A stretch of DNA of 64,000 nt from Candidatus Aminicenantes bacterium. Lineage in GTDB: Bacteria; Acidobacteriota; Aminicenantia; Aminicenantales; UBA8522. The position numbers and the translations under genes are program-made. The notes under the pieces were generated by a model. That model did no database searches. It was not told where the DNA came from and saw only the letters and a program-made list of their open reading frames with translations. Location of the stretch: assembly GCA_017886205.1 (NCBI GenBank), contig JAFNEO010000012.1, forward strand, positions 235,207 to 299,206, written 5' to 3'. How positions within the stretch are numbered: position 1 is the first letter of the stretch; every line of letters starts with the position of its first letter. Positions 24,713 through 62,888 of this stretch are shown here, piece after piece.

Positions 24713-24789
24713 GAAATTCGCCCATCGCCCGGACGTTCGCACCCGGCTTGCTGACGCCCCGAATTTGTTAATTGTTGAGACCTGACCCC
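24713..24789. repeat. Extended family A unit (~77 nt: GAAATTCGCCCATCGCCCGGACG...GCTGACGCCCCGAATTTGTTAATTGTTGAGACCTGACCCC)
   Basis: ~80% identical over full length to 33367-33449; ends exactly at stop codon of LVIVD gene. Confidence 0.7.
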
Positions 24790-28518: not shown

Positions 28519-28588
28519 GGGGTCAGGTCTCAACATTCAACAATTGTCAGCGTCGCTCCTGATTTGTTGATTGTTGAGACCTGACCCC
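28519..28588. repeat. REP family A doublet
   Basis: ggggtcaggtctcaacattcaacaa-N20-tttgttgattgttgagacctgacccc. Confidence 0.85.
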
Positions 28589-29456: not shown

Positions 29457-29594
29457 TTGTGAACAACTAGAAATTGTGAACATACCGATCCGTATGTCGA
29501 TCATTTACAAGCCGGTGTCCAGATCATTGAGGAAATTTCCTCTAACAACTCATTTAGGGCTTGACATTTGTTCATATATTTGCTATGTTCACAA
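29457..29594. promoter_or_regulatory. Promoter/operator region: TTGTGAACA x2 direct + 1 inverted (TGTTCACAA), TTGACA-N17-TATGTT promoter
   Basis: Sites at 29457-29465, 29474-29482, 29586-29594; -35 TTGACA 29559-29564. Confidence 0.4.
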
Positions 29595-30676
29595 TAGATG
29601 AAAAGAAAAATAAAGTGAACGCTATCCTAAACAAAACTAATAAAAACATCGAAGAAGAAATATTTCGGCTTGCCATTGAGGCGTTTCGGAAAAATGTCCC
29701 GACGCTAGCCAATATTGAAACGATTAACCTGGAACGCGTTTTCATAGAGGGGTTTCGGCCAGACCGCCAAATAAAAATGACAGTGCAGGGCAAGACTTTG
29801 GATTACTACGCCGAAATAAAAACAAATTTCAAAGAAGCAAATAAATTCCAATTGCTTATGTACAGAGATAAGCTCGACCACCCGCCCCTGGTCATCGCGA
29901 AGTATGTCAATGCCCAGATGGCAGATCAGCTAAAGCAGGACGGTCTGGAGTTCATCGACACTGCCGGCAATGCGTTCGTCAATAATCCTGCATTCTATAT
30001 TTTCGTGAAAGGGAATAGGCCTCCGGAGATACCAGGACAACCGCCACTTGAAAGAGCTTTCAAACCTGCCGGCCTGAGAATGGTTTTTGCCTTCTTATGC
30101 AATCCCGGTTTTGAGAATAGGACCTACCGGGAGATCGCCGCTGCCACAAAGGTCGCACTCGGGACCGTTAACTGGATCATGAAAGATCTGAAAAAACTGG
30201 GCTTTCTTCTGGACATGGGGAGGCGAGGCCAAAAGCTAATCCAAAAAGAGAATTTGCTACAACGATGGGTCATTGCATACCCGGAGCGGCTCAGGCCGAA
30301 GCAGATGCTCGGGCGCTACCGGGGTGATGCTGCCTGGTGGCAACAGAAGACCCTGGACCCGTTGAAAGCACAATGGGGTGGAGAGATTGCTGCCGCCAGA
30401 TTGACACAATATCTAAAACCGGAACTGATAACGATCTATACCGGGCCCCAAGAGATCAATCATCTGTTGTTCGAAAACCGACTCAAAAAAGACACGGCTG
30501 GAGATATCGAAATTCTGGCGAGATTCTGGAAGCCCGTTGAGATGTGGGAATACGGTGACCTAGTCCACCCAATCCTAGTTTATGCCGATCTCCTGGCAAC
30601 GGGAAACCAGAGAAATATAGAAACAGCGAAAATGATCTATGAGCAACATATTATTCGACTTATCAGGGAAGATTGA
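29585..30676 (+). CDS. AbiEi-like putative transcriptional regulator/antitoxin (wHTH-containing), start uncertain (29561/29585/29597)
   Basis: Internal HTH-like segment 'YREIAAATKVALGTVNWIMKDLKKLGFL'; immediately upstream of and overlapping AbiEii-like NTase gene. Confidence 0.4.
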   Translation: MFTIDEKKNKVNAILNKTNKNIEEEIFRLAIEAFRKNVPTLANIETINLERVFIEGFRPDRQIKMTVQGKTLDYYAEIKTNFKEANKFQLLMYRDKLDHPPLVIAKYVNAQMADQLKQDGLEFIDTAGNAFVNNPAFYIFVKGNRPPEIPGQPPLERAFKPAGLRMVFAFLCNPGFENRTYREIAAATKVALGTVNWIMKDLKKLGFLLDMGRRGQKLIQKENLLQRWVIAYPERLRPKQMLGRYRGDAAWWQQKTLDPLKAQWGGEIAAARLTQYLKPELITIYTGPQEINHLLFENRLKKDTAGDIEILARFWKPVEMWEYGDLVHPILVYADLLATGNQRNIETAKMIYEQHIIRLIRED

Positions 30677-31505
30677 TCAGCAGACAGTCGCCGCGCTATC
30701 TGTCGTGAAGAAAATCGCGGACTCCTTGAGTATTCCTTTTTTCGTCGTCGGCGCTTCGGCAAGAGACATCATTCTCAAGTACTGCTACGGAATAGAAACA
30801 CCGAGGATGACCAGAGATATCGACTTGGGAGTTGAGGTCGCAGATTGGGAGCAGTTCGACCAGCTTAGGGAATCATTGCTCTCGACGAGCAAATTCTCTT
30901 CGACGCAGGTACGGCACAGGCTCCGGTTCGATTCTGTCCTCATCGATATCGTTCCTTTCGGCGCAATCACCGACGAGAAAAGACGGATTAGCTGGCTACC
31001 TGAACACGAAATATTCATGAACATGGCTGGTTTAAAGGAGGCCTACGAATATTCGGTTGATGTGAAATTGAGTTCGGTCCCTGAGCTCGATATTAAACTG
31101 CCAACTCTACCAGGCCTAGCGCTCATGAAGTTGATTTCGTGGAAAGAGGGGTATCCGGAGCGCCAGAGAGACGCTGAGGATCTGCTGCTTATCATGGAGA
31201 AATATGAAGAAGCGGGCAACTTTGACAGACTCTACGAAAAAGAGCAGAGCCTGTTGGAGGAAGAGCATTTTGATGCAAGACATGCCAGTATCAGGCTGCT
31301 CGGCCGCGATATGGCTATAATGGCAGATCCTTATACATTGGACACGGTCAGGGCGATATTGAGTGAAGAAACAGGACAACGTTCTCAATATCGATTGATT
31401 ACAGATATGATCAGAGGCATGCTTGCTTCCGATCTCAAATTCGATGAGATTCTCTCTCAGCTAGAGAAGCTGGGACAAGGCCTTGTTGAGGCCTCAAAAA
31501 CATAA
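30639..31505 (+). CDS. AbiEii/AbiGii-family nucleotidyltransferase toxin (DUF1814-like)
   Basis: 'FFVVGASARDIILKY...RMTRDIDLGVEV' minimal NTase hG[GS]...D.D motif resembling GGTAL/RFSEDID of AbiEii; ~288 aa. Confidence 0.55.
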   Translation: MSNILFDLSGKIDQQTVAALSVVKKIADSLSIPFFVVGASARDIILKYCYGIETPRMTRDIDLGVEVADWEQFDQLRESLLSTSKFSSTQVRHRLRFDSVLIDIVPFGAITDEKRRISWLPEHEIFMNMAGLKEAYEYSVDVKLSSVPELDIKLPTLPGLALMKLISWKEGYPERQRDAEDLLLIMEKYEEAGNFDRLYEKEQSLLEEEHFDARHASIRLLGRDMAIMADPYTLDTVRAILSEETGQRSQYRLITDMIRGMLASDLKFDEILSQLEKLGQGLVEASKT

Positions 31506-31517
31506 CCGCTGTACTTC

Positions 31518-32757
31518 TTGTTAACCCCCTGTCCGCCCAGAAGCTTGTATCATATTAAAACAAGCATAACAGCTTGTGTTTCGACCGGAAAAAGAGACAC
31601 GGCAATTTTCACTAGACAGTTAAAAAAGCCTTGCCCGCCACTTCCTCTCCCTAGAAAACTCCCAGGAGCTCTATTACAACTGGGACCTTCGCCAGGTGCG
31701 GGATAGGTATAGGTCTGACTATACTTTCTTTGAGAGCCCGCTGCGAGACGCCAAATCTCGGGGGCGATTGCCCTGGATCTGTTTCGATGAGATCCACAAA
31801 ATGCCGAAATGGAAGAATATTCTCAAGGGTTACTACGACAAATACGAGAACGACTGCCGGTTCATCGTCACCGGCAGCGCCCGGTTAGACTGGTTCCGGC
31901 GGTCCGGAGATTCCCTGGCGGGGCGTTATTTCCTCTTTCGCTTGAATCCTTTAACACTCTCCGAAGTCGCAGGTCACCCGCATCGTGAGCCTGCCCGGGA
32001 TGAAACTGCTCTGGAATTCATTGAGCGAAAGCTGAGCCGGGGCCCCTCCAGGCAGGATCTGATTGATCACCTCCTGCACTACAGCGGGTTTCCCGAACCC
32101 TTCCTCAAGGCGGATGAGACATTCTACCGGCGATGGCAACGGGATATGGTGGATTACCTGACGAGGGAGGACGTTCGCGATCTGACGCGGATTATGGCCG
32201 TTGAGCATATTGCGACATTGATGCAGATCATGCCGGATCGTGTGGGCTCGCCTCTATCGTTGAATGCGCTGACAGAGGACATCGAGGCCAGTTATACTGC
32301 AGTTAAGAACGCTATCTCCGCCATGCAGCTCATCTGTGCCGTTTTTTTGATCTCCCCTTATCACCAGAGAATTGCCCGGGCGGTCAAAAAAGAAAAAAAG
32401 GCCTATTTTTATGATTGGGGCCGCGCCCTCGAGCCGGCGAAGAGATTCGAGAATTATGTCGCCGTCGAGCTCGCCACGATGATCGACCTCTGGCACGATA
32501 AGGGGATCGGCGATTTCGACCTGATGTACGTCCGAACGCGGGACGGCAAAGAAACTGATTTCCTGGTCATGCGGAATCGCCAGCCCTGGTGCCTCTTCGA
32601 GGCCAAACTTCAGGACGACGTTATCGCCCGGCACCATTTCGATCAGGCCAATGCCCTGGGGAACATCCCGTTTCTTCAGGTCACGGGTCAGGATAAGGTC
32701 TTCAAGAGACAGGATTCGCGCTTTTTCCGCATCTCCGCCAGCCGGTTCTTTGCGTGA
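31518..32757 (+). pseudogene. 5'-truncated/frameshifted AAA-ATPase of DUF4143 family
   Basis: ORF 31696-32757 begins at Walker B (WICFDEIHK) and has DUF4143-like 'TGSARLDWFRRSGDSLAGRYFLFRLNPLTLSEV' but lacks Walker A; short overlapping upstream frame (31518-31706) suggests frameshift. Confidence 0.5.
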
Positions 32758-33366: not shown

Positions 33367-33449
33367 GAAATTGGACCACCGCCCATCGCCCGGACGCTCG
33401 CGGCGGTATGCTGATGCTCCGGATTTGTTGATTGTTGAGACCTGACCCC
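33367..33449. repeat. Extended family A unit (second copy of ~80-nt element)
   Basis: GAAATTGGACCACCGCCCATCGCCCGGACGCTCGC...GCTGATGCTCCGGATTTGTTGATTGTTGAGACCTGACCCC. Confidence 0.7.
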
Positions 33450-34810: not shown

Positions 34811-34837
34811 TTTGTTGATTGTTGAGACCTGACCCCC
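34811..34837. repeat. REP family A half-site
   Basis: tttgttgattgttgagacctgaccccc. Confidence 0.85.
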
Positions 34838-46629: not shown

Positions 46630-46944
46630 TCAGTCCATATCCAGGGCGAAGCGGATGGCCTTATGGATCTCCTCCATTTTCCGCTCCGAAAGCCGGGCGA
46701 TTCTCGATTCCAGATAGGCCTTGGGAATCGTCAGCATCGAATCGCAATTCACGGCGCACGGCTTGGGGAGTCCGTCCTCCAACCCGAGAGAAACCTCGGC
46801 GGCGATTCCGCGGACGGTCGTCGTCACGGGCGCCACGGTGACTGCCGTCCTCACGGGATAGGCTTCGTCCCGGCTGAGGAGGACGACGGGCCTTCGCCCG
46901 GCCGGCGGTTTCAGCCGGGCCCACCAGACCTCGCCTTTTTTCAA
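46630..46944 (-). CDS. MazF/PemK-like toxin
   Basis: 'KKGEVWWARLKPPAGRRPVVLLSRDEAY' PemK-like N-terminus. Confidence 0.65.
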   Translation of the reverse strand: MKKGEVWWARLKPPAGRRPVVLLSRDEAYPVRTAVTVAPVTTTVRGIAAEVSLGLEDGLPKPCAVNCDSMLTIPKAYLESRIARLSERKMEEIHKAIRFALDMD

Positions 46945-47198
46945 GTCCAGTCCTCTTCTGACATGGACTCGGCCGACGTGCCGGCCATGGCCTCGGCGAT
47001 GGAGGCGTCCTCGGGCTTTTGACGATACCCGTTTTCGTACTCTCTCACCAATCGTTCCCTTTCGCGCGCTTCCTTCCAGGCGCGGAACGTTGCTAAAAGA
47101 AAGCCGCTGCGGCTCAATCCGGCTTTTCTGCGAATGGTCTCCAATTCCTTAAATTCCTCCCATGGGATACTGACGGCGAATTTGGCGGATTTTCTCAT
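46941..47198 (-). CDS. Ribbon-helix-helix antitoxin
   Basis: 'KFAVSIPWEEFKELETIRRKAGLSRSGFLLATFRAW' CopG-like; overlaps toxin start. Confidence 0.6.
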   Translation of the reverse strand: MRKSAKFAVSIPWEEFKELETIRRKAGLSRSGFLLATFRAWKEARERERLVREYENGYRQKPEDASIAEAMAGTSAESMSEEDWT

Positions 47199-47269
47199 GA
47201 CCAAGACCTGCTTCTTTCGGGTATTACCATGATAATACCGGAGTATTCCTATTGTCAAGTCGCAGATCG

Positions 47270-47390
47270 CGATTCAGTTCCGCCTTCGCCCGCGCGCTCG
47301 GCTTTTCCTCCGAATTCATCTCCCTCCTCGAGGCCGATAAAAGAGCGCCGTCCCTCGCCGCCCTGAACAAGATCGCCGCGTTGAAAAAGG
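47270..47390 (+). pseudogene. Remnant (~40 codons) of a third XRE-ImmA regulator gene copy
   Basis: Translates to FARALGFSSEFISLLEADKRAPSLAALNKIAAL, near-identical to residues ~20-55 of 51557 and 56507 products. Confidence 0.6.
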
Positions 47391-47549
47391 GTAATAAGAT
47401 CACACCGGCCTGAGAATTCATCTTCATATCCCGCGTCTTTTGAGTATGTTGATATTTGTTCCCGGCTCGAGCTTAGCAGGGCGCAAAATGTGTACGCAAG
47501 TGTTGACACATTTGGCTGTAATGATAAAATATCTCTTAAGGTGATCACC

Positions 47550-47816
47550 ATGAAGATGGCGGGCATTCGTGAAGTCCGGGCAAAATGCGCCGGCTATCTT
47601 GGCGGTTCCGAGCCTTTCCTGGTCACAAAACACGGGAAGGTCTCGGGTGTGTACATCCCGCTCGAATCTCCGGATCGGTTGCCCGACGATTGGCGCCGGG
47701 AAATCGGCAAGAGCCTGAGCCATTATCTCGCCAGGCTGCTGGAATTGAAGGGAATCACTGAGCGAGACGTTGGAGAGGATTTCCGTGCCTTTAGAGGCAG
47801 TCGTCGCCGACGCTAA
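47550..47816 (+). CDS. Phd/YefM-like (VapB-position) antitoxin
   Basis: 'MKMAGIREVRAKCAGYLGGSEPFLVTKHGKVSGVYIPLES'; SD aaggtga; overlaps PIN gene. Confidence 0.55.
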   Translation: MKMAGIREVRAKCAGYLGGSEPFLVTKHGKVSGVYIPLESPDRLPDDWRREIGKSLSHYLARLLELKGITERDVGEDFRAFRGSRRRR

Positions 47817-48207
47817 CGTTCTTCTTTCAGCGGTCATCGGAAAAGCCGCGCAAAAAATATTTTCAGAGCATAACCTTAAAGTCCATGCCTCAGAATTCAA
47901 TGCGAGCGAAGTCGGGGAATACCTGCCTGTCATGGCTAGAAAATATGCGCTGCCGGTGAATCTTGTCGTCTTGCGCTGGAGACTCCTCCCGCTGATCATC
48001 CATCCAGCTTCTGAATACGCCGGGCATTATAAAAAGGCATTAGCGGACCTAAAGGATCGAGATCCTGAGGATGCGCATGCGCTGGGGCTGGCCCGCGCGT
48101 TGAATTGTCCTCTGTGGTCGAATGATCGCCATCTGGCCAAATTCGAAGTCGCCTGTTACACGACGGCCCGGCTGCTCAAAATCCTGGAAATGCCGAAAGG
48201 ACGATAA
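47770..48207 (+). CDS. PIN-domain toxin (VapC-like)
   Basis: 'VVADANVLLSAV' N-terminal Asp block and 'WSNDRHL' C-terminal acidic block typical of PIN. Confidence 0.65.
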   Translation: MERISVPLEAVVADANVLLSAVIGKAAQKIFSEHNLKVHASEFNASEVGEYLPVMARKYALPVNLVVLRWRLLPLIIHPASEYAGHYKKALADLKDRDPEDAHALGLARALNCPLWSNDRHLAKFEVACYTTARLLKILEMPKGR

Positions 48208-48210
48208 GCC

Positions 48211-48248
48211 CGACGCCCCGAATTTGTTAAGTGTTAAGACCTGACCCC
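48211..48248. repeat. Degenerate REP family A half-site
   Basis: cgacgccccgaatttgttaagtgttaagacctgacccc. Confidence 0.7.
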
Positions 48249-48307
48249 GAAGGACCGAAGGAGGGCAATCCTTTAGCCTGGCGGTTATAATTGCCCTGGA
48301 AAAGGCG

Positions 48308-48937
48308 ATGACGCTGGTCAAGGAATATAAAGCCTACAGAAGAGCGTACAGGGAGATGAATCATAAAATTATGGAGAAGTATCTGAAGCATGATCAGCTT
48401 TTGAGATCAGCCAAGTTGCTCGGCGTTGTCCAGAGGGGCACTATGGTGTTCGAAAATGAGGAGGAAACAAACGTTTTGATGGATTTCGCCTTACATGAAT
48501 ATCGAGAGCACGACAAGAATGCAATCGCCCTCTACAGGGAGAAAATCGGCGGAGAGAGCGCCATGGAGAGGGCAATTTTGAACGCTCTGCTTTCCTCACA
48601 CACGTCATTGTTTAGAATTAGCGCTGTCTCGCCGTCAGAAAGTATCACGTCCTTAAGAGACCTCCTGAGTGAAGGGCAGCCGGTCAGACTCTTGGATATC
48701 GGCCTCAGCCAGTGCGCCACTCCAGGCTTCTTGATATTTGTCAGGCTCGTTCCATACAAGGACATGTTCATAACCTCCGGGATATCTTTCGTTTTTCCTC
48801 CCGGCCTGGAGAGATGTCTTCTTGGGAAGTATGAGGAGTTGTGCGGAAAAACCGAACCGGATGGGCTCTCGCTGGAGAGGTTTGTTTACTTTTTCAGGAG
48901 GAGCCGCGAAGATGGCCTGAGAGTCATTTATCAGTGA
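48308..48937 (+). CDS. Hypothetical protein (209 aa)
   Basis: Uninterrupted ORF in AT-richer accessory segment; no recognised motifs. Confidence 0.35.
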   Translation: MTLVKEYKAYRRAYREMNHKIMEKYLKHDQLLRSAKLLGVVQRGTMVFENEEETNVLMDFALHEYREHDKNAIALYREKIGGESAMERAILNALLSSHTSLFRISAVSPSESITSLRDLLSEGQPVRLLDIGLSQCATPGFLIFVRLVPYKDMFITSGISFVFPPGLERCLLGKYEELCGKTEPDGLSLERFVYFFRRSREDGLRVIYQ

Positions 48938-49028
48938 ACCTGAGCCATCAAGCGATCCTTATTACTTCATCTGTTTTGATCTTGCTTTATTCTAATAAAC
49001 GATTTTTAAATGAAAGAAAGAGTGCGCT

Positions 49029-49340
49029 ATGTGGTCGAAAAAGGAAAAGGACATTGCCCGGCGGGCTTTTGAGATGGCCCTGGAGAGAGAAGGCTTAGAG
49101 CTTTTAAGAAAGATCAAAGAGATGGCGCGTACGGCCGAGAATCGTAAAGATATCTGGCAGATCCACGATTTCCTCACGGAGAGAAGAACCGAAATCGATC
49201 AAAAGTATGATTATCGATATTCAGTGCTCATTCCTATTTTCGGCAGATTGGTCCGCGAAGAATGGATTAGACTCGATGAGCTTGAGGGTCTTGACGAAGA
49301 TAAAATCACGAAAATTAAAATAATGGCGAGTTTGGAGTAA
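49029..49340 (+). CDS. Hypothetical small protein (103 aa)
   Basis: ORF only. Confidence 0.3.
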   Translation: MWSKKEKDIARRAFEMALEREGLELLRKIKEMARTAENRKDIWQIHDFLTERRTEIDQKYDYRYSVLIPIFGRLVREEWIRLDELEGLDEDKITKIKIMASLE

Positions 49341-49453
49341 CCCATGGCTTTCATGGATCTGCTTGCCGAAGGCGAGGCCGGCAATAGAGCGCTGTCTTTC
49401 GCCACTCTCCATTTCCCTGTTATCGAATCGCCTTGGCCGCATCCGCTCGATGC

Positions 49454-49825
49454 TCACCTATATCGGCTGAGAATTCTCTCTCTATCCTCGTTCTCTTTGT
49501 CACCCTTGTAGTAAATTTCGATGAGCTCGACCCGATCCATTTCCTCGAAATAGGCATATACCACTCGAATTCCGGAATGGGCTCCTTTTCCTTTGAGCGC
49601 CCGGCAAGCGAATTTCCGGCCCTTGTAAACCTTTGGTCCTTGAATGCCAAGCTCCGCCATCTGCACAACCCCTTTGTTGTCAATCCTCAACTTATGGAAG
49701 AGTCCGAGCTCTGTGTTGATGAAATTGTCCAGGTCATCCTCTAGGGACCGGAACCTCTTGAGGAGCCTCTTCATGTCCCGCTCGAATTCCGGCAAGCGAA
49801 TAATTTCCTTAAACGGCGTCATCAT
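49454..49825 (-). CDS. RelE/ParE/HigB-like toxin (Gp49-like)
   Basis: C-terminal 'GIRVVYAYFEEMDRVELIEIYYKGDKE' toxin-fold signature; overlaps upstream antitoxin gene. Confidence 0.5.
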   Translation of the reverse strand: MMTPFKEIIRLPEFERDMKRLLKRFRSLEDDLDNFINTELGLFHKLRIDNKGVVQMAELGIQGPKVYKGRKFACRALKGKGAHSGIRVVYAYFEEMDRVELIEIYYKGDKENEDRERILSRYR

Positions 49826-50591
49826 ACTCCCGGACTGAATAAGCCGGTGCCCTGTAAAATACGGATTCGTACTCGATCGTTTTTCCCTCCTCAGTGGTCA
49901 GCCAGGGAACGTCGTTATGGGAATAATCAGTGATCTGACGGGCGTTCATGTCGGATAGCCTCCCCAGGACGTCGTTAATGATCTCTATCTCGCTGCCTTT
50001 CAACATGTTCAGGTCTGGCTTTCTCAGAGGCAGGTACTTTCTCTGAGGATATTCAAAATAATTCGCCTTAACTTCGACAATCACCCCATTAGCCATCATT
50101 TGATCCACGATTTTCCTGAATTCAAGGGGCGTCGGCCCATATTTGTTCTTCAGGTAAGTGGCGCCCATGAGCTGCTCCTCATACTTCTCGTAATAGTCAA
50201 AATCGATGAAATATAGGAGCTTATAAATGACCGTTTCGCCGATGGCGGGTTTTGCTCCCACCTTGTTGAGGATATAGATCAGTACTTCCTTGAATTTCCG
50301 GAGGTTCTTCTGGGGGATGTTAATTCTCATCCGGGGCATCGCTTCGGATCCATAGGCTTCCCGGCTTTCTCTGATCACGATTTGCGGCTCTTTATCTGGA
50401 TCGAGCAGGGTGTCCACAGACAGATTGAAGATTCCAGCTAATTTCCTAAGCTCCTCGGCGCACACCTTTCTCTCTCCGTTCTCAATCTGAGATATAGACG
50501 GGCGTGAAACACCGAGTTTCTCAGCCAAGGCCTGTTGGCTTAATCCAGTGGACTCGCGGATTTGCTTTATTCTTTGACCTAATGAATCCAT
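49809..50591 (-). CDS. HTH-XRE + Panacea (DUF4065/SocA-like) domain antitoxin
   Basis: N-terminal 'IKQIRESTGLSQQALAEKLGVSRPSISQIENGER' XRE HTH; C-terminal block 'VIYKLLYFIDFDYYEKYEEQLMGATYLKNKYGPTPLEF' resembling Panacea domain. Confidence 0.5.
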   Translation of the reverse strand: MDSLGQRIKQIRESTGLSQQALAEKLGVSRPSISQIENGERKVCAEELRKLAGIFNLSVDTLLDPDKEPQIVIRESREAYGSEAMPRMRINIPQKNLRKFKEVLIYILNKVGAKPAIGETVIYKLLYFIDFDYYEKYEEQLMGATYLKNKYGPTPLEFRKIVDQMMANGVIVEVKANYFEYPQRKYLPLRKPDLNMLKGSEIEIINDVLGRLSDMNARQITDYSHNDVPWLTTEEGKTIEYESVFYRAPAYSVREYDDAV

Positions 50592-50693
50592 ATTTCACTC
50601 CTAGGTTATAATTATAGATATGTTGGATAATATGTCAAGGCTATGTAAGAATATCGGACAAATCGAACCAGCAAGATATAGAGGGCAAAGACA

Positions 50694-50764
50694 GGGGATC
50701 AGGTCTGAATTCTTAACAAATTGAGGCGCCCCCTAGGATTTTTTGATTGTTGAGACCTGACCTC
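50694..50764. repeat. Degenerate REP family A doublet
   Basis: ggggatcaggtctgaattcttaacaa-N22-ttttgattgttgagacctgacc. Confidence 0.7.
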
Positions 50765-50922
50765 AAAAATCGATAATCCCCCCCGCGGCCGAGGCGGTAC
50801 GGTCGTCTTTATCCCACCTCTCCCCGAACTCAAGGAAACAAGCGAATACCTTATGAAATCCGGTTTCCGTCCGCTGTCTTGAAATAGCGGAACTCTTGTT
50901 TTATTAGGGCTTATCCGCTCAC

Positions 50923-51114
50923 TCACTGGCCGGGCGGAGGGATCTCCAGATCCCGACAGATCTTGCGCGCTAAAAAATCGTTTATTTCGGCATGTCTTGG
51001 CACTGTCGAAACCTTATATGTCCTTTCATTCAGATAAACCGAGTGGCTCCTGCCTTCCCGGAGCATAACGCATCCGTGTGCCTCCAGGAATCGGATCAAC
51101 TCCCTGCGCTTCAT
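50923..51114 (-). CDS. hicA: HicA-family toxin
   Basis: 'MKRRELIRFLEAHGCVMLREGRSHSVYLN' HicA signature. Confidence 0.7.
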   Translation of the reverse strand: MKRRELIRFLEAHGCVMLREGRSHSVYLNERTYKVSTVPRHAEINDFLARKICRDLEIPPPGQ

Positions 51115-51329
51115 GAAAGAGGGACTTCAATTTTTTCCCGAATGACGCTTTTGTCCGCGATTTCCTGCTCCGCGAGCTTTTTGTTGGCTTCTAGGACTAA
51201 GCAGACGGCTTCTCGAAGATTCCGGCGAGCTTCACTCAAGGTTTTTCCTTGCGTATTCGCCCCGGGCAATTCTTCTACAAAACCGACGTAGCCTTCCGGC
51301 ACCTTCATAAAGACGGCCGTGAACGACAT
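51111..51329 (-). CDS. hicB: HicB-family antitoxin
   Basis: 'MSFTAVFMKVPEGYVGFVEELPGANTQGKTLSEARRNLREAV'; SD agaggtg; overlaps hicA. Confidence 0.65.
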   Translation of the reverse strand: MSFTAVFMKVPEGYVGFVEELPGANTQGKTLSEARRNLREAVCLVLEANKKLAEQEIADKSVIREKIEVPLS

Positions 51330-51454
51330 CTTTGCACCTCTATTATGAATAGACGCTTTTCCTGCGGGTTTTCTCATTTTTTCCCTCGCCAGTTTAATAT
51401 ATCACAATTTCTCAAGGAATCATGGCCGAGCGCCTAAAGATCAGCAAAACGGAC

Positions 51455-51479
51455 TTATTGATTGTTGAAACCTAACCCC
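51455..51479. repeat. Degenerate REP family A half-site
   Basis: ttattgattgttgaaacctaacccc. Confidence 0.6.
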
Positions 51480-51556: not shown

Positions 51557-52651
51557 ATGCAAGGGGTCCTCGGCATCAAGCTCAAAAAAGCCCGCACCGA
51601 TCTGGGCCTCTCCCAGGCCGCTTTCGCCCGCGCGCTCGGCTTCTCCTCCGAATTCATCTCCCTCCTCGAGGCCGATAAAAGAGCGCCGTCACTCACCTCC
51701 CTGAACAAGATCGCTGCCTACCTCAAGAAAGACCTCGGCTACTTCTTCCAGGAGAAAGAAGGCGCCTTCAACATCCTCCTCCGGGGCGACGCCCTCAAAG
51801 GGCCCGAAGGCCTCGACGCCGCCTCCCAAGCCGTCCTCCAGCGCTTCAAACGATACTGCGACGACTATCTGAGGCTCGAACGCGTCGCCAACCGCGCCGG
51901 CTCCTCCGCCGGCCCCTCCCGCCGCCTCCCTCTCGCTCCCTTCTACACCAACATCTCCCCTGAGCGCCTGGCCGAAGAGGAACGCCGTCGCCTCGGTGTT
52001 GGCGATGAGTCCATCCGCGACATCTTCGCCCTCTCCGAGCTCAACGGCTGCCGCATCCTCCGCCTTCCCATCCCCAGCGGCGCCAAGCTCTCCGGCGCTT
52101 TCATCTTCCTCGAGGACAGGGAAGCGGCCTTCGCCCTCATCAACAGCGCCGACACACCCGGCCGCCAGGCCTTCACCGCCGCCCACGAATACTGCCATTA
52201 CCTCAAGGACCGCCACGAGGGGCCGCTCATCGAAAACCCCGATGTTTTCATCGACGAGTATGTCTCCCTCTACCATCCGCGGGAGAAATTCGCCCAGACG
52301 TTCGCGGCCTGCTTCCTCATGCCCGCCTCCAAGGTCCAGGCGATCATCGAGAAGGAATTCGGCGGCCGAAGGCTGACCTTCGACCATGTGCTCTACATGA
52401 AGCGGTATTTCGGCGTGAGCTTTGCCGCCATGCTGCGCAAAGTGAGGGAGCTGGGATTTGTGTCGGCGGCCCAGTTTGAGGATTATATCAAGCGCGATCC
52501 GGACAGCCGAGAGCGAGAGGTATTCGGGGCGAGGGGAAGGCGGAGGGCGAACGCCAGCCGGCCCATCTATTCTGACCGATACATGTTGCTTAAGGCTGAA
52601 GCCGCAAAGACGAAGCGCCAAACTTCGGATAGTGCGAAATCAAAAGGTTAA
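51557..52651 (+). CDS. Single-chain XRE-HTH / ImmA-IrrE (M78) metallopeptidase regulator (COG2856-like)
   Basis: N-terminal 'LKKARTDLGLSQAAFARALGFSSEFISLLEADKR' HTH; C-terminal 'TAAHEYCHYL' HExxH. Confidence 0.75.
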   Translation: MQGVLGIKLKKARTDLGLSQAAFARALGFSSEFISLLEADKRAPSLTSLNKIAAYLKKDLGYFFQEKEGAFNILLRGDALKGPEGLDAASQAVLQRFKRYCDDYLRLERVANRAGSSAGPSRRLPLAPFYTNISPERLAEEERRRLGVGDESIRDIFALSELNGCRILRLPIPSGAKLSGAFIFLEDREAAFALINSADTPGRQAFTAAHEYCHYLKDRHEGPLIENPDVFIDEYVSLYHPREKFAQTFAACFLMPASKVQAIIEKEFGGRRLTFDHVLYMKRYFGVSFAAMLRKVRELGFVSAAQFEDYIKRDPDSREREVFGARGRRRANASRPIYSDRYMLLKAEAAKTKRQTSDSAKSKG

Positions 52652-56506: not shown

Positions 56507-57568
56507 ATGCACGGTGTCTTAGGGTCCAAGCTCAGAAAAGCCCGCACCGATCTAGGCCTCTCCCAGGCCGCTTTCGCCCGCGCGCTCGGCTTCTCCTCCG
56601 AGTTCATCTCCCTCCTCGAGGCCGATAAAAGAGCGCCGTCTCTCACCACCCTGAACAAGATCGCCGCCTACCTCAAGAAAGACCTCCACTACTTCCTCCA
56701 GGAGAAAGAAGACGCCTTCAACATCCTCCTCCGGGGCGACGCGCTCAAAGGGCCCGAAGGCCTCGACGCCGCCTCCCAAGCCGTCCTCCAGCGCTTCAAA
56801 CGCTACTGCGACGACTATCTGAGGCTCGAGCGCCGCGCCAACAGCCGCCTCCCTCTCGCTCCCCTCTACACCAACATCTCCCCCGAGCGCCTGGCCGAAG
56901 AGGAACGCCGCCGCCTTGGTCTCGGCGATGAGCCCATCCGCGACATCTTCGCCCTCTCCGAGCTCAACGGCTGCCGTATCCTCCGCCTTCCCATCCCCAG
57001 CGGCGCCAAGCTCTCCGGCGCTTTCATCTTCCTCGAGGACAGGGAAGCGGCCTTCGCCCTCATCAACAGCGCCGACACACCCGGCCGCCAGGCCTTCACC
57101 GCCGCCCACGAATACTGCCATTACCTCAAGGACCGCCACGAGGGGCCGGTCATTGAAAACCCCGATTTCTTCATCGACGAGTATGTCTCCCTCTACCATC
57201 CGCGGGAGAAATTCGCCCAGACGTTCGCGGCCTCGTTCCTGATGCCCGCCTCCAAGGTCCGGGCGATCATCGAGAAGGAATTCGGCGGCCGCAGGCTGAA
57301 CTTCGACCATGTACTTTACCTTAAGCGGTATTTCGGCGTGAGCTTTGCCGCGATGCTGCACAGGGTGAGGGAAATGGGATTTGTGACGGCGGCCCAGTTT
57401 GAGGACTATATAAAGCGCGACCCGGACAGCCGCGAGCGAGAGTTGTTTGGGGCGAGGGGAGGGGAGAGGGCGAGCGCCGGCCGTACCGTCTTCTCCGACC
57501 GGTATAAGCTGCTTCAGCTCGAGGGTATGAGGCAAAAGCGCCGAATCCCCAATAGAGGAAAACGATAA
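56507..57568 (+). CDS. Single-chain XRE-HTH / ImmA-IrrE (M78) metallopeptidase regulator, second intact copy
   Basis: ~85-90% identical to 51557-52651 product incl. HEYCHYL. Confidence 0.75.
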   Translation: MHGVLGSKLRKARTDLGLSQAAFARALGFSSEFISLLEADKRAPSLTTLNKIAAYLKKDLHYFLQEKEDAFNILLRGDALKGPEGLDAASQAVLQRFKRYCDDYLRLERRANSRLPLAPLYTNISPERLAEEERRRLGLGDEPIRDIFALSELNGCRILRLPIPSGAKLSGAFIFLEDREAAFALINSADTPGRQAFTAAHEYCHYLKDRHEGPVIENPDFFIDEYVSLYHPREKFAQTFAASFLMPASKVRAIIEKEFGGRRLNFDHVLYLKRYFGVSFAAMLHRVREMGFVTAAQFEDYIKRDPDSRERELFGARGGERASAGRTVFSDRYKLLQLEGMRQKRRIPNRGKR

Positions 57569-57681: not shown

Positions 57682-58173
57682 ATGAAAATCCTCGACGATT
57701 CTGTCAACTCGCCTTCGATTAGGGAGAGCCTCAGGATCGACTTGCCCCAGGTCTTGCCCCCCGGGGAATGCAGAAACGCCGTTTATGACGCAAACCTGGC
57801 TGCCCATTTTATCGCGGGCCCAGTGAACCGGGCCCAATACCTAGCCCAGATAAGCGCCGAGCAGAAGGTGCGGGAAAGGCCGCTGTGCTCTGTGGCGGCG
57901 ACCCATGAACAGGAGCTGGATAGGATGGCTAAGATTATTCGCCAGCGGCAAGTCCTCAACGAACGAATCGGCGTCATCGGAGTTCCAGGAGATGGCAGTG
58001 CTAAGGGGGGGTCGAATACAACGGGCAACTTACCATTCAGACGAGCGGTGCCTGGAAGTCTGGTGAGCAACATCGGGCTGGTGGGGGTGGGCGGGGCGAA
58101 CAGGATAATTAAAAGCGCCGGCAGGGTAAGGACCCGGACGACGATGAATTTTCGGTGCGGTGAAGAGATTTAA
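57682..58173 (+). CDS. Hypothetical protein
   Basis: ORF only; start chosen at MKILDDSV (track start 57610). Confidence 0.3.
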   Translation: MKILDDSVNSPSIRESLRIDLPQVLPPGECRNAVYDANLAAHFIAGPVNRAQYLAQISAEQKVRERPLCSVAATHEQELDRMAKIIRQRQVLNERIGVIGVPGDGSAKGGSNTTGNLPFRRAVPGSLVSNIGLVGVGGANRIIKSAGRVRTRTTMNFRCGEEI

Positions 58174-58276
58174 TATTAAACGATATGTAAGAGAATTATT
58201 GCATGGTAGACATAAGTAATATCCTTGGCGGCTATTATTAATATTTGTTCTTTATGGTGAAAAGAATTTGAGAAAA

Positions 58277-58906
58277 ATGCCAGAGTGCAATAACCGGGAT
58301 TGTGCGAGCGCGATAATTGTGACTAATTCCTCACGGAATTTTGGTAATCCTTCATTTGCTGTGACAAGGGCACTTGAATGTGGATTTATTAAATATGGGC
58401 AAAATATTCTTGAAATCGGATCTGGGAATTTACGCAATTCGTCCTATATCATCAAGAACATAGATCGGGTCGGCGTCAGCGCTTATGAGATTATGAGCAC
58501 GGTGCAAAAATATGCAAGCGCGTATAATACTTTTAGAAAAAAGGGAGGAATTATACTCCATAGCTTTCCAAATGGGCTGATTTATGATGCTATCGTTTGC
58601 ACGTTCGTTTTGGAAACAGTCTGTCCACAGGCAAAACGAACCTTCTTGCTTAAGAAAATCAGGCAGAGGTTAAAATCCGATGGGATTTTGGTTGCTTCTT
58701 TTCGCGGGGTTTCTGGGGTCATTGGAACAGAATATAAAGAATGTTCTAAAAAGGAAGGATGGCTGACGCCGTTGCATACATTTATAAAGCCTTATACGAT
58801 TAAAGAGGCAGACTCTCTGCTTAAATCCTGTGGGTTTACAAAAATAGTTTTTTTGCAGGATTATCGCGTTAACACTCCACGAAACATTCATCTCGTTGCA
58901 ATCTAG
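58277..58906 (+). CDS. Small class I SAM-dependent methyltransferase
   Basis: Motif I 'ILEIGSGNLRNSSYI', acidic 'VSAYEI', motif II 'YDAIVCTFVLETV', motif III 'DGILVASF'; AT-rich. Confidence 0.55.
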   Translation: MPECNNRDCASAIIVTNSSRNFGNPSFAVTRALECGFIKYGQNILEIGSGNLRNSSYIIKNIDRVGVSAYEIMSTVQKYASAYNTFRKKGGIILHSFPNGLIYDAIVCTFVLETVCPQAKRTFLLKKIRQRLKSDGILVASFRGVSGVIGTEYKECSKKEGWLTPLHTFIKPYTIKEADSLLKSCGFTKIVFLQDYRVNTPRNIHLVAI

Positions 58907-58914
58907 GAGTTAAT

Positions 58915-59940
58915 ATGGAAAGAAAATGGCTTGAAGCATTTTATAAAGAATGCGGACGTGAAGTATCATTAGCCTATAATGTACTAAATCAAACAAATAA
59001 TTGGGGGATTACCCTTGCAGTGGCCGTGGTCGTTACATGCTTCTTGGGTACTGCTCGGGTTGAGGGAAGAACTATTTATCTCACTTATCCTACGCTTCTG
59101 CAATGGTACCTAGTTATTTTCGGATGGATCATCATGGTCCGATTCTTCGTTCGCTCTGCCCTTGGATTGGTCAATATGTATCGTTGGAATGAATTAATTA
59201 ACTCGACATGTAAGGTTCTTTCTCTTCCAGAATCACATCCAGATACTCCTCTTTTAAATAGAAACCTCGCGAAAAAGATCGAGGCTTACTTTTTCAGATT
59301 TAGAAGCCCCAAAACAAGACGGTTTATAGTCTGGCACAACCTAAAACTCATGTACCTTTGGTTCTTTATAATCCTTCTGTGTCTGTTCACTTGGGGAATA
59401 ATTGTCCTAGAAAAAACCATTTTGTTCTGGGTTGGGCTACTTCTTTTTATTATACCTACAATCATAGAAATAGTCTGGTTTAATAGATGGTACGGCCTAC
59501 AATACCAAGGCTTAGAACTGGAAGTGGAAAAGGACTTGAAAGATATATTAAATGAAAAGCGCGAAAGTATTCCTGAAATAGGTCGGGATGTCATGATATT
59601 AGGTTTCTGTGAGGATGGTCCTTTTAAACATGCGAAAACACTCCTCACGAATCCCACGGTGAAGTGGCTTCCATGGGCCTACCAATCACACGAAATACAT
59701 CCTTTTGTCCTTGCACAACTCTCTGATAATGAGAAGCTGGATAGTCAAAGAATCGCATTTGCGTCCTGGGAAAAGGGATTCATTGGTCCCGTGGATATCA
59801 TCAGATATGGCAGGATCGACTATCATAAATTCGTTTCCGGCCATTTACAGCTCACAGTTATGCTTGATGAATACAATGGAAGCTTGCCAACTCAACGCAT
59901 TGAAATTAGAAACCCCAAAACATTTTGCTATTTCCTATGA
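58915..59940 (+). CDS. Polytopic membrane protein of unknown function
   Basis: >=5 hydrophobic helices; 9-nt gap from MTase gene. Confidence 0.45.
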   Translation: MERKWLEAFYKECGREVSLAYNVLNQTNNWGITLAVAVVVTCFLGTARVEGRTIYLTYPTLLQWYLVIFGWIIMVRFFVRSALGLVNMYRWNELINSTCKVLSLPESHPDTPLLNRNLAKKIEAYFFRFRSPKTRRFIVWHNLKLMYLWFFIILLCLFTWGIIVLEKTILFWVGLLLFIIPTIIEIVWFNRWYGLQYQGLELEVEKDLKDILNEKRESIPEIGRDVMILGFCEDGPFKHAKTLLTNPTVKWLPWAYQSHEIHPFVLAQLSDNEKLDSQRIAFASWEKGFIGPVDIIRYGRIDYHKFVSGHLQLTVMLDEYNGSLPTQRIEIRNPKTFCYFL

Positions 59941-59969
59941 TAAATGAAAAGCATAATTAGGAGAAATAA

Positions 59970-62888
59970 ATGGGCGTACTAACCGGCTGCAAACCTCGTA
60001 AGGAAGTCCTTAAGGGCGATCTCGATGATGCCATTTTTGCCGCGGACTTTGGTGACCTCATTTCCGGCAAGGCACCAAAAGTCTACGGAGATGCAAAGAC
60101 CTTCTTTCAAAACACACACCCCGCCAAACAGCTCTGTAAAGTCATCGAAGTGGTTTTCGAGCGATTGGCCGACCCGAAGGAAGCTGGAGCAACGGTTCGA
60201 CTGAGTACAGGTTTTGGCGGAGGAAAAACGCACACGCTGATGGCCCTATGGCATCTGGCCCAAAATATCGAGAACCTGGGCATGGGCACGGAACTCCTTC
60301 CCGCTGCGGGCCGGCCGAAATCTGTTACTGTAGCCGCGCTCGACCTCAGCAAAGCCGGACAGCCGGTTTTTTCCCAGCATGGGAATACTAAAATCCATAG
60401 CTTCTGGGGAGAGATCGCTTTTCAGCTTGGCGGTGATAAAGCCCTCAAGGCACTCGGAGAAGCGGATCATCCCGAAAAGCAGCCCACCGAAGAACTCATA
60501 TCGAAATGGTTTCCCTCCGGTCCTGTCCTTGTCCTGATTGATGAGGTCGTTGTCTATATGGCGAGTCTTTCTGAACAGGGGCAGGGCAATCTTCTCGCAT
60601 TTCTAAACAAGCTCTCATCCACAGTCTCGAAGCGTCCCCGAACGGTCTTTGTCGTCACTGACCCGGCTGACCAACGAGCCTATGCTAAGCAAGCTCAGAA
60701 AATCGGCGATGCCATGCTGGCCGCTGCAATCCGTCTCGACGATCTCTTCGGCCGCAGGATGACGGACTTCGATCCCATAGGAGAAGAAGCCGCTAGAGTG
60801 ATCGTCCGGCGCTTGTTCGAAAAAGTTGATCCTGCATCCACCCAGGAAGCCTCTGCCTCTTATCATTCCCTGTATGAGCGAGTTTCACAGGAATCTCCGG
60901 GAACGATCGCCCCTGCCGCCGCCTCTTCAGATTACGCCAAGAGGATCGTTGAAAGTTACCCCTTCCATCCCAGGCTGATGGATACCGCACAGGGTCGGCT
61001 CGGAGCTCTCCAGGAGTTCAATAAAAGCCGTGGCACCCTCAGGCTTTTTGCCCGCATATTGCGATCCATATGGGAATCCGGCCAGGACCTGGAGCTCATC
61101 ACTGCGGGCGATGTGGATTGGTCCAGCCCCCGCATTCAGGCGGACCTTCTCCACCGTTTGAACCGGGACAATTTTAAGGCTGCTGTATCCGCGGACGTAG
61201 AAAAACATGCCCGAGAGCTGGACGGAACCAATGTCCGTGGCGTGCACGTCCGAGTAGCTTCGGCGCTTCTTCTGGAGAGCATTCCCATGCAGTCTAACAG
61301 CGGGCTTGACCCGGCTGAGCTTAGCCTGGCTGTCCTTCGGCCCGACGAAGCCGGCGCCGAGCCAAATGAAGCTCTCGACCGTCTCGTCGGTGTCTGCTGG
61401 CATACATATCCGCTCGCCGGCGGCCGCGGGTGGCAGTTCCGTTATGAGCCGAACATCATTAAGCAGATCGAGGAGCGGATGAATGATATTTCCCTTGAAG
61501 ATGCCCGTGGCCGAGTTCACGGCGAGGCTCAGGGCTACTTCCAGGGCCCGGCATTTCGCCTCTCAGCCTGGCCTGCAACCGCCCGTCAGGTGCTCGAATC
61601 TCCCGATCTTCAACTCGCCCTCTGTGAAAATGAACAGATTGCGCGAGCCGTTTGTGCTTTTTCGGATGACGCCAATCCCCAAGCCCCGACCCCTCGCAGA
61701 TTCCGTAACGCCATCTTGGCGGTCACGGCAACCCAGGCCTCTCTGAATTCAGCTGTCGAGCGGGCACAGCGGCTGATGGCGGCCGAAGCCATTGAGAAGG
61801 ATTACAAAACTGGAGAGCCCGGCAAGTTAATTCGGGATCAGCTCCAGAGGATTATGCCGGAGCTCAGAAGGCAGTTCCGCGTCCAAACCTGTCGGGCATT
61901 CGATCGCGTCATCTTCGCCGGTGGCGCTTCCTACCCGATAGAAGAAAAATATCAGGTTTCCGAAGAAATGATTATGCAAAGAGCCCAAGGCCAGGCATGC
62001 CTGCGAAGATACCTTGAAGAAAAGGGTCTGATCTATCTTCCAGGGGATGCCGTCGATGTCAGCCGATTTGTCAAGGAAATCCTTCCGGGCACAACGCCTC
62101 TCGCTGACCAACCCGGAGTCTATACCGCCAAGGCTGTTCACGAACGCTTTTTGTCTGCCCCCGGCCTCCGGCTTATTTCGGACGGTGCCGTCGTTCGTCA
62201 AACGCTCTTGAAATCCGTTAGGGAAGGCAAGATCGTAATCAGACTTGTTGATGTTGGGCGGGCCTACGATAAGAATGGATGCGTCGAGGGGCCCGAAAGC
62301 CGCCGAAGGCGGATTCCGGGAGAATTGACGACACTCTCTCTAGACGAGTCTGTCCAAATAACGCTATCGGGAACGGACACAGCAGCGCTCTGGGTTAAAG
62401 AGGATAAGCCAGGGGAAAAACCGATACCAGGTGGGGTTAAGTATGAACCGCCACGCCCAACCGAAACCAAAGTCCGGGCCTCCACCTGGCCGAAAGCCGA
62501 GGAATATGCTAAAGAAAGGCCTCTGCTAAGAATTGAGCTCGTTGCGCATTCTCCGGTTGAAGCGCAATCACTGCTTCCTCTAGCCCAGCCGTTCGGAGCG
62601 GAGAGCATTTCGTTATCCGTAGATGTCAGCGGTGACCTCAAGGATGGAGGCAAGACCTACTTCCGCATGGAAGACGTTAAACCGACTCATGGATTGAAAC
62701 CGCTCGAAATAGCCCAGCGGCTATATACCGCAACATCTGAAGGCGCCGCTTATGAGGCAATTCTCGTTCTCGGCTTCGGCGCGTCTGGCCGCACGGGGCT
62801 CGATGCCCAATTCCGAAAGGCTTCAGAGGATGCCCCTGAAGGCATTGCCCTGAACGCCGACTTTGAAAAGCCGATAGGAGGCCGCTAA
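59970..62888 (+). CDS. Large P-loop NTPase (~972 aa), DUF499/COG1483-like predicted defence ATPase
   Basis: Walker A 'TGFGGGKTHTLMAL', Walker B-like 'VLVLIDEVVVYM'; long C-terminal extension. Confidence 0.55.
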   Translation: MGVLTGCKPRKEVLKGDLDDAIFAADFGDLISGKAPKVYGDAKTFFQNTHPAKQLCKVIEVVFERLADPKEAGATVRLSTGFGGGKTHTLMALWHLAQNIENLGMGTELLPAAGRPKSVTVAALDLSKAGQPVFSQHGNTKIHSFWGEIAFQLGGDKALKALGEADHPEKQPTEELISKWFPSGPVLVLIDEVVVYMASLSEQGQGNLLAFLNKLSSTVSKRPRTVFVVTDPADQRAYAKQAQKIGDAMLAAAIRLDDLFGRRMTDFDPIGEEAARVIVRRLFEKVDPASTQEASASYHSLYERVSQESPGTIAPAAASSDYAKRIVESYPFHPRLMDTAQGRLGALQEFNKSRGTLRLFARILRSIWESGQDLELITAGDVDWSSPRIQADLLHRLNRDNFKAAVSADVEKHARELDGTNVRGVHVRVASALLLESIPMQSNSGLDPAELSLAVLRPDEAGAEPNEALDRLVGVCWHTYPLAGGRGWQFRYEPNIIKQIEERMNDISLEDARGRVHGEAQGYFQGPAFRLSAWPATARQVLESPDLQLALCENEQIARAVCAFSDDANPQAPTPRRFRNAILAVTATQASLNSAVERAQRLMAAEAIEKDYKTGEPGKLIRDQLQRIMPELRRQFRVQTCRAFDRVIFAGGASYPIEEKYQVSEEMIMQRAQGQACLRRYLEEKGLIYLPGDAVDVSRFVKEILPGTTPLADQPGVYTAKAVHERFLSAPGLRLISDGAVVRQTLLKSVREGKIVIRLVDVGRAYDKNGCVEGPESRRRRIPGELTTLSLDESVQITLSGTDTAALWVKEDKPGEKPIPGGVKYEPPRPTETKVRASTWPKAEEYAKERPLLRIELVAHSPVEAQSLLPLAQPFGAESISLSVDVSGDLKDGGKTYFRMEDVKPTHGLKPLEIAQRLYTATSEGAAYEAILVLGFGASGRTGLDAQFRKASEDAPEGIALNADFEKPIGGR

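Follow-up and report, generated by a model that had tools for sequence, protein, structure and literature searches.

The stretch described here lies at positions 46,630 to 51,329 of a 64,000-nucleotide (nt) window, the whole of the DNA analysed, from a Candidatus Aminicenantes bacterium (GenBank assembly GCA_017886205.1, contig JAFNEO010000012.1, positions 235,207 to 299,206 of the forward strand). Its central element is a two-gene system, panAT, encoded on the minus strand, in which the antitoxin PanA combines an XRE-type helix-turn-helix (HTH) with a Panacea domain and the toxin PanT is RelE/HigB-2-like. The pair is probably a self-repressed type II PanAT module located in a toxin-antitoxin (TA) island. 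A first-pass annotation, made from the sequence alone, had proposed such an island with an HTH/Panacea antitoxin and a RelE/HigB-fold toxin. All of its open reading frames (ORFs) were found in the ORF listing where it had placed them, and this reading is supported by the hidden Markov model (HMM) searches, the family profile, the predicted fold and the conserved neighbourhood. The earlier observation was largely right, and so was the interpretation of the Panacea protein, though it was not new.

The Panacea antitoxin and its toxin partner

PanA (49809-50591, minus strand, 260 aa) consists of an XRE HTH at residues 8-61, a linker and a Panacea (DUF4065) domain at residues 123-230. The HTH was recognised by HTH_3 (5.6e-16), and the Panacea domain expected of a PanAT antitoxin was recognised by SocA_Panacea, PF13274 (6.1e-17, 63 bits, the cut-off being 25.7). 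Both domains had been named in the first-pass annotation, which had staked its call on a Panacea HMM hit. PanA also matches phrog_10390 over its full length. The panA and toxin genes share a 17-nt overlap, as had been called, and a GGGAG Shine-Dalgarno motif stands directly 5' of the toxin ATG, inside the end of panA; this arrangement is consistent with translational coupling of the toxin.

PanT (49454-49825, minus strand, 123 aa) was classified with a family profile, an AlphaFold model and Foldseek. Its family falls into 2162 clusters when grouped at 90% identity and has 527 representatives when grouped at 50%, and some members are labelled RelE by JGI. The profile of 64 family members, compared with the PDB sequences, matched V. 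cholerae HigB-2 at 3.1e-5 (0.011 for the single sequence). The AlphaFold (AF2) model reached a pLDDT of 94.5 and a pTM of 0.88, and its structural matches assign it to the RelE fold, an alpha-helical hairpin on an antiparallel beta-sheet. The top 50 Foldseek matches in the PDB were all RelE, HigB2, YoeB, YafQ, HigB or RelE-like domains, the best being 1wmi_A (E 9e-4, TM 0.63). Residues D31, R87 and K107 are invariant and K68, Y105 and R117 near-invariant among the 64 relatives, and R87, Y105 and K107 line up with the same three residues (R, Y, K) in HigB-2, where they form part of its GxR-IY and IY-K motifs. The toxin is placed in the RelE superfamily because its family is large and has RelE-labelled members, its profile matches HigB-2, and its confident model finds RelE-type structures in Foldseek. 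The RelE/HigB-2 fold suggested at first pass is supported by the sequence profile and the model, and the protein would be toxic and would act as an RNase.

For the locus scan, the toxin alignment of 64 sequences proved too diverse, and one of 13 sequences took its place. The metagenome scan with this alignment gave 80 toxin loci with a toxin identity of 60-85%, and 58 of them were informative, having at least 800 nt upstream. In all 58, a gene encoding an HTH and a Panacea domain ends at or overlaps the toxin start, a figure limited to relatives at least 60% identical because the 13-sequence alignment was used. The pairing at 36-39% identity comes from three single look-ups. In L121 (39%) the toxin gene lies downstream of that of a 252-aa HTH-Panacea protein and in L124 (36%) of that of a 178-aa Panacea-only protein. 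In L122 (37%) the upstream gene encodes a 321-aa protein with a borderline Panacea match (25.3 bits vs 25.7) and an unassigned N-terminal region of about 200 aa.

The conserved two-gene architecture that characterises PanAT systems is therefore found in 58 of 58 loci and in three distant relatives, and a Panacea antitoxin was the partner of the toxin in every case examined. Since all these loci are paired with Panacea, the toxin family is a dedicated Panacea partner. As the N-terminus of the antitoxin varies and Panacea is constant, we infer that neutralisation is the task of Panacea, possibly together with a short tail at its C-terminus, and the HTH would be regulatory.

PanAT systems were defined by Kurata et al. 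(2022, PNAS; PMC8832971), who reported 343 PanAs with an N-terminal HTH, partner domains of the MqsR, Fic/Doc, toxSAS, PemK and ParE types, and direct complexes for five pairs. The published pairs are direct-binding type II systems, and an HTH is carried by many PanAs (PMC8832971, PMC10440598). Direct neutralisation was shown for a Panacea that stands alone and, in certain multidomain PanAs, for additional domains (PMC10440598). The closest counterpart of the pair described here is cluster T14 of Dataset S1, which was assigned to 'Toxin HigB-2' by HHpred (99.73%) and has the order antitoxin then toxin, with members such as WP_119120439.1, WP_015641600.1, WP_091514613.1 and WP_067091868.1; in Cryosericum, Saccharibacteria, Flexibacter and Pedobacter its PanA has an HTH, and in methanogens it lacks an N-terminal domain (PMC8832971). 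Clusters T28 and T59 are likewise RelE/ParE-like (PMC8832971). The pair shares with T14 and other PanAT systems a Panacea domain above the cut-off, an N-terminal HTH, the antitoxin gene in first position with a short overlap, a HigB-2/RelE toxin, and a broad, patchy distribution in uncultured phyla. The agreement with T14 concerns the architecture and the HigB-2 assignment, as compared by the rows of Dataset S1. Because T14 already lists an HTH-PanA with a HigB-2-like toxin, the pairing is not new: on its domain content, the pair adds one more example to an architecture already catalogued (PMC8832971). It differs in that Aminicenantes have no entry in the published table of Kurata et al., and in that its conserved double operator, described below, is not mentioned in the PanAT accounts compared.

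Two further systems are related in part. The HigB-2/HigA-2 pair of V. cholerae (5ja8, 5ja9, 8a0x) shares the toxin fold and the C-terminal GxR-IY ... IY-K motif, and HigA-2 is, according to the title of entry 8a0x, an antitoxin with an XRE-type HTH that binds operator DNA. However, the identity of HigB-2 to the toxin described here is only about 16-24% in structural alignments, and HigA-2 lacks the Panacea domain present in PanA. In higBA loci the toxin gene usually comes first, whereas in panAT it follows the antitoxin gene. The founding Panacea protein is SocA of the Caulobacter SocA/SocB system, a type VI TA, and its family, PF13274, is SocA_Panacea. SocA, which has no HTH, serves as the ClpXP adaptor of a toxin that is unrelated. 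PanA scores only 18.5 bits against a cut-off of 190 on the NCBIfam equivalog NF047745, which sets it apart from SocA.

Predicted autoregulation and alternative explanations

The panAT promoter, with its two operator-like sites, occupies 50611-50660 on the minus strand and matches the consensus at 12 of 12 positions. It is a perfect sigma-70-type TTGACA-16-TATAAT promoter located 20 nt 5' of panA, with the -35 box TTGACA at 50638-50633 and the -10 box TATAAT at 50616-50611, and an AGGAG motif precedes the panA start codon. The operator-like sites O1 (TGTCCGATATTCTTACA, 50660-50644) and O2 (TGACATATTATCCAACA, 50637-50621) are related 17-nt sequences about 23 nt apart, and O2 overlaps the -35 box and the spacer. 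When 56 homologous upstream regions were anchored on the -35 box, the consensus aaTGTAA.AaaaTCtAACATt.tcTTGACA.ATTATCTTACAT...TATAAT was obtained, or in a shorter form TGTAA.AaaaTCtAACAT...TTGACA.ATTATCTTACAT...TATAAT. The layout of O1 and O2 is that expected for autorepression by an HTH dimer, whose binding is predicted from the sequence.

What was observed here is the domains, the fold, the order of the genes, their conserved pairing and the conservation of the promoter and operator motifs. From this we infer for panAT a scheme that goes further, to toxicity, action as an RNase, the surface that neutralises, binding to DNA and the trigger. The 260-aa PanA would be made first, and synthesis of the 123-aa toxin would be coupled to it in translation through the 17-nt overlap and the Shine-Dalgarno motif within panA. 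The toxin, given its RelE/HigB-2 fold, most likely cuts mRNA on the ribosome. PanA would neutralise it through direct binding by the Panacea part, which is proposed as the neutraliser because no other element recurs in every partner examined across the family. The XRE HTH of PanA would bind the two 17-nt operator-like sites around and over the -35 box, so that the operon would repress itself. If PanA were lost or inactivated, the toxin would be freed.

Several points weigh against this scheme. The operator-like sites are predicted from conservation, and the putative neutralising interface from partner architecture. The toxin gave no match in Pfam or NCBIfam and no meaningful match in PADLOC, and none of the curated toxin models RelE, ParE_toxin, Gp49, HigB and YafQ recognised it. 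The profile match to HigB-2 is confined to the C-terminal half of the toxin, and the TM-scores of the fold matches are only moderate, at 0.5-0.66. The target of the toxin is not settled by the fold, because the RelE/ParE fold also takes in gyrase poisons. In Dataset S1 of Kurata et al., the T14-type pairs are all marked 'notest' (PMC8832971). For multidomain PanAs, Ernits et al. (2023) lean towards Panacea being a sensor, and in B. fungorum the HTH-Panacea part alone did not neutralise MqsR, which is neutralised by a separate Zn-binding domain (PMC10440598).

The sensor role is also the starting point of an explanation in which panAT serves primarily in abortive infection or phage defence, with Panacea sensing a phage cue and releasing the RelE-like toxin, and not in simple addiction or stabilisation. 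A sensory Panacea and a link between the TA network and defence were both proposed by Ernits et al. (PMC10440598), the island of panAT has further genes of TA and defence type, among them an RmrA-like XRE-M78 gene, AbiEi and AbiEii genes are present elsewhere in the window, and the toxin and PanA give PHROG matches, though weak ones. However, the toxin matched the PADLOC defence models only at chance level and PanA only via its HTH, and no close relatives were found on IMG/VR viral contigs. We consider a primary role in defence unlikely, though not far-fetched; it would in any case be compatible with, and not exclusive of, a type II TA mechanism. A lower probability still is given to the toxin being a ParE-like gyrase poison instead of a ribosome-dependent mRNA endonuclease. 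RelE and ParE have one fold in common, ParE is among the PanT domains of Kurata et al. (PMC8832971), and the YoeB/ParE structure 6n90 appears at rank 49 of the fold matches of the toxin. Yet the best sequence and fold matches all belong to the RNase branch (HigB-2, RelE, YoeB, YafQ and HigB), the invariant R87 and K107 and the near-invariant K68, Y105 and R117 fit an RNase and ribosome-binding surface, and one of the 64 toxin relatives touches Pfam RelE (PF06296, 0.0065) while none touches ParE_toxin. The self-repressed type II module with an RNase-branch toxin is preferred here.

A phage origin of these genes was considered and rejected: neither the toxin subfamily nor the fluorescence recovery protein (FRP)-like protein described below had a relative in the IMG/VR scans, and BFVD gave only generic OB-fold matches, for the DUF7986 protein.

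Neighbouring cassettes and the accessory island

The region between 46.6 and 52.7 kb is a low-GC accessory island acquired horizontally and is ordinary in kind. Its G + C content (GC) is 0.47-0.52 across 47-51 kb, against about 0.58-0.60 in the surrounding DNA, and it is bordered by a MacAB/HlyD-type efflux operon on one side and a bactofilin gene on the other. The map, built from a six-frame ORF listing and family scans (Pfam, NCBIfam, PADLOC and PHROGs), shows four two-gene TA cassettes transcribed independently, namely mazEF-like, phd/PIN_2, panAT and hicBA, each pair having a promoter-like site of its own. They are accompanied by two solitary accessory genes, for a DUF7986 protein and an FRP-like protein, and by an orphan XRE-M78 regulator gene. 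Several metagenome contigs carry the same gene set, and Candidatus Aminicenantes/Aminicenantales metagenome-assembled genomes supply the best-named homologues of several island genes. The cassette order differs in the relatives L007, L038 and L039, the mazEF-like pair adjoining DUF7986 in L007. The island character follows from the GC dip, the rearranged cassettes in these three relatives and a hicA deletion variant. In this strain variant, L003, from another sample, 131 nt are gone from inside hicA (50971-51101) and hicB is intact, a natural deletion in a toxin gene.

The first cassette encodes a MazF/PemK-family toxin of 104 aa (46630-46944, minus strand; PF02452 8.5e-17, 61.8 bits). The presumed antitoxin (46941-47198, minus strand) has 85 aa from an ATG at 47198, the longest ORF reaching 47258; it overlaps mazF by 4 nt and is preceded by a promoter-like site at 47258-47229 that matches 11 of 12 consensus positions. 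No family match was obtained for it in Pfam, NCBIfam, PHROGs, the PDB or plasmids (tblastn). The pair had been read as ribbon-helix-helix (RHH)-MazF: the toxin half of this label stands, and the RHH half found no match in the same searches. By its toxin domain the pair is MazEF-like, with an upstream 85-aa protein of no detectable family.

The second cassette, on the plus strand, consists of a Phd/YefM-like antitoxin gene (47550-47816, 88 aa) overlapping the gene of a PIN_2-domain, VapC-like toxin (47785-48207, 140 aa, in an ORF that opens at 47770; PF10130 2.5e-16). The acidic residues D14, E42/E47, D97/D99 and D119 were noted in the PIN_2 sequence. The antitoxin has no match in Pfam; tblastn linked it to genes annotated as 'prevent-host-death family protein' (7e-4) and 'Phd/YefM family antitoxin' (4e-3), and a promoter-like site (11/12) lies at 47503-47530. 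The PIN part of the earlier Phd-like/VapC label is firm, and the Phd-like part is only weakly borne out.

The last cassette encodes a HicA toxin of 63 aa (50923-51114, minus strand; PF07927 1.3e-9, 38.5 bits vs a cut-off of 27) and a HicB-like antitoxin (51111-51377, minus strand; probable start at 51329, giving 72 aa). The HicB-like protein was identified through PHROG 497 'HicB-like' (1.6e-7); UPF0150 gave 26.6 bits, just below the cut-off of 27.3, and HicB_lk_antitox 0.0025. A HicA domain and a HicB partner, the latter by a borderline UPF0150 score plus PHROG 497, agree with the HicBA pair named at first pass. Like known HicAB, MazEF and VapBC-type systems, these cassettes have toxin domains above the Pfam cut-offs and small upstream partners that overlap the toxins. 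They differ from them in the lack of a recognisable family for the MazF partner, in the short HicB without a DNA-binding domain, and in the PIN_2 family of the PIN toxin, whose partner is Phd-like rather than VapB-type.

The island is closed, outside the focal stretch, by a gene encoding an XRE HTH and a peptidase M78 domain (51557-52651, plus strand; ImmA/IrrE, RmrA-like; PF06114 6.4e-13 with HTH_3; PADLOC RmrA 8.2e-31), beside which there is no candidate toxin. A stretch of about 100 nt of its HTH occurs three times in the window at 94-98% identity, two of the copies being within full XRE-M78 genes (51557-52651 and 56507-57568) and the third a separate fragment positioned between the mazEF-like and phd/PIN cassettes; the related contig L038 likewise has three copies. 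The fragment (47280-47379, plus strand) is 94% identical to 51618-51717, the likeness being confined to about 100 nt of the HTH, and a further copy lies at 56594-56640. These copies are likely a recombination substrate, and the fragment is a coding relic left by recombination among paralogues. The second XRE-M78 (ImmA/IrrE-type) gene is followed by a stretch with a GC of 0.41 (58000-60000) containing unannotated genes of 163, 209 and 341+ aa according to the gene calls of L001; together they may form a Rosmer-like or other defence module. Another low-GC segment of the window, at 29561-32757, carries AbiEi (PF09952, 2.5e-42), AbiEii (PF08843) and an AAA_14/DUF4143 ATPase, and is probably a 'TA island I'.

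A dispersed palindrome resembling repetitive extragenic palindromes (REP-like), with the half-site TTGATTGTTGAGACCTGACCCC, has 15 matches in the window, where none is expected. Copies are located at 15346-15425, 16984-17005, 19178-19247, 21903-21972, 24768-24789, 28519-28588, 33428-33449, 34815-34836, 48227-48248, 50695-50764 and 51458-51479. The full copies are hairpins of about 80 nt with near-perfect stems of 24-25 bp (z -6 to -10) directly 3' of stop codons, and follow genes for an M50 peptidase, an S9 peptidase, a Ser/Thr kinase and a P-type ATPase. Within the focal stretch there are a degenerate half-site at 48211-48251 (plus strand) and a degenerate copy between panA and hicA (50695-50767), whose fold is no better than that of shuffled sequence (z = -0.35). 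Rfam gave no match anywhere in the window.

Sedentary integrons typically hold TA cassettes, and short repeats related to TTGATTGTTGAGACCTGACCCC stand at three cassette junctions (48227, 50743 and 51458), so that the island might be read as a chromosomal integron-type cassette array with the palindromes as attC sites. This reading was rejected and is extremely improbable. The junction repeats are not attC, because the full copies are hairpins that trail long housekeeping genes across the window; their near-perfect 24-25-bp stems lack the bulged bases of attC, and inspection by eye alone did not reveal the R'/R'' core consensus. The copies within the island are degenerate, and both strands carry cassettes, every one of which has a promoter of its own. 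An array of attC sites at the cassette ends with an adjacent intI was not found, with no formal attC model run.

The FRP-like and DUF7986 genes

Two small ORFs between the phd/PIN_2 and panAT cassettes, which the first-pass annotation had called unannotatable and had proposed as orphan toxins or immunity genes, were both assigned to families. The gene at 49029-49340 (plus strand, 103 aa) encodes an FRP-like protein (FRPL), a homologue of the cyanobacterial fluorescence recovery protein, with a full-length match to PF18032 (7.8e-28, 97.2 bits vs 26.6, profile positions 1-99 of 99). In the PDB it matches 5tz0 (2.8e-27), 8ag8 (the FRPL of P. borbori, 1.5e-20) and 4jdx (Synechocystis FRP, 5.6e-17). 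At the OCP-contact positions F76/K102/L106, whose states accompany OCP regulation according to Steube et al., the alignment to 4jdx places P69/K95/M99 in FRPL, so that the lysine alone is kept. Steube et al. (2023, Nat Ecol Evol; PMC10172135) reported FRPLs in proteobacteria and acidobacteria whose genomes lack OCP, called their function unclear and regulation of OCP impossible, and gave in the main text no information on genomic context or operons. The protein described here resembles the FRPLs of non-cyanobacteria, such as 8ag8, in its full-length match and in its acidobacterial-type host, a group reported to have FRPL; it scores higher on the cyanobacterial 5tz0 (98 bits) than on 8ag8 (77 bits).

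The gene at 48308-48937 (plus strand) encodes a protein of 209 aa assigned to DUF7986, in which helical parts at the N- and C-termini enclose an OB-fold barrel. PF25948 (DUF7986) is present in the precomputed records of the exact protein and of all 51 homologues, and the local Pfam scan gave no match. The family has a patchy distribution in bacteria and archaea, with members in Asgard Jordarchaeia, Thermoplasmata, methanogens and Nitrosotalea, and in the genome loci L007-L032 it often adjoins TA, Fic or restriction-type genes.

The two genes lie 91 nt apart on the same strand, and the 1.1-kb block that contains them (48265-49380) is found again in L038, among other neighbours and with 93.7% identity. 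Both facts would suit a fifth two-gene module, a new toxin-antitoxin or toxin-immunity pair, as would the finding that 8 of 10 independent FRP-like contexts have TA, defence or mobile genes within about 2-3 kb. We nevertheless rate such a module as very unlikely and rejected it as a conserved unit. At 26 DUF7986 genome loci no FRP-like gene was found within 4 kb, even at 80% and 74% DUF7986 identity, and no other neighbour was conserved there. FRP-like genes at 76%, 69% and 63% identity and lower have no DUF7986 alongside, and the adjacency holds only in some close relatives. Neither protein, one with an OB fold and the other an all-helical FRP dimer, is like a known toxin. The orphan toxin or immunity idea was therefore not upheld: DUF7986 has no conserved partner, its neighbour belongs to the FRP family, and no mark of a toxin or immunity gene is present on either.

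The ten FRP-like contexts span Aminicenantes-like to more distant lineages. Besides the TA island of this window, they include HicB, a SWIM protein and DUF7686/7713 (L033), AbiEii and AAA_14/DUF4143 (L038), a HicB-like gene and HicAB (L039), DUF2442 (L125), DUF6883/DUF4926, HEPN/MNT and DUF499/DUF1156 (L126), IS110 and TumE (L127), and PemK and patatin (L128); L036 and its duplicates are mostly housekeeping in appearance. AAA_14/DUF4143 ATPases were observed 1-1.5 kb downstream of the FRP-like genes in L036, L038 and L039. The association of FRPL with TA genes is a lead only, and anecdotal, because the contexts have no background control and such genomes are rich in TA genes. That FRPLs are mobile accessory genes of TA and defence islands, where as small protein-binding dimers they would regulate or neutralise an effector of stress or defence, is a speculative and unlikely proposal.

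For the PanAT family, the value of the focal pair is confirmatory, and it documents a large family of RelE/HigB-2-fold toxins that has no Pfam model. The occurrence of the same toxin with HTH-Panacea, Panacea-only and other N-termini provides a natural series for establishing which part of PanA neutralises, and bears on the question in the PanA literature of whether Panacea neutralises or senses only. From the conserved double operator comes a model of autoregulation that can be tested directly. The most unusual feature of the stretch, and one of broader bearing than the focal pair, is the presence of an FRP-like gene among TA cassettes, with anecdotal evidence on its role. If the proposal made for it were true, the recruitment of FRP to switch off OCP would have reused a prior habit of binding and resetting a partner protein, FRPLs being the non-cyanobacterial ancestors of the photoprotection regulator. 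Were FRPLs tied systematically to islands of TA and defence genes, the ancestral role of FRP would have its first concrete hypothesis.

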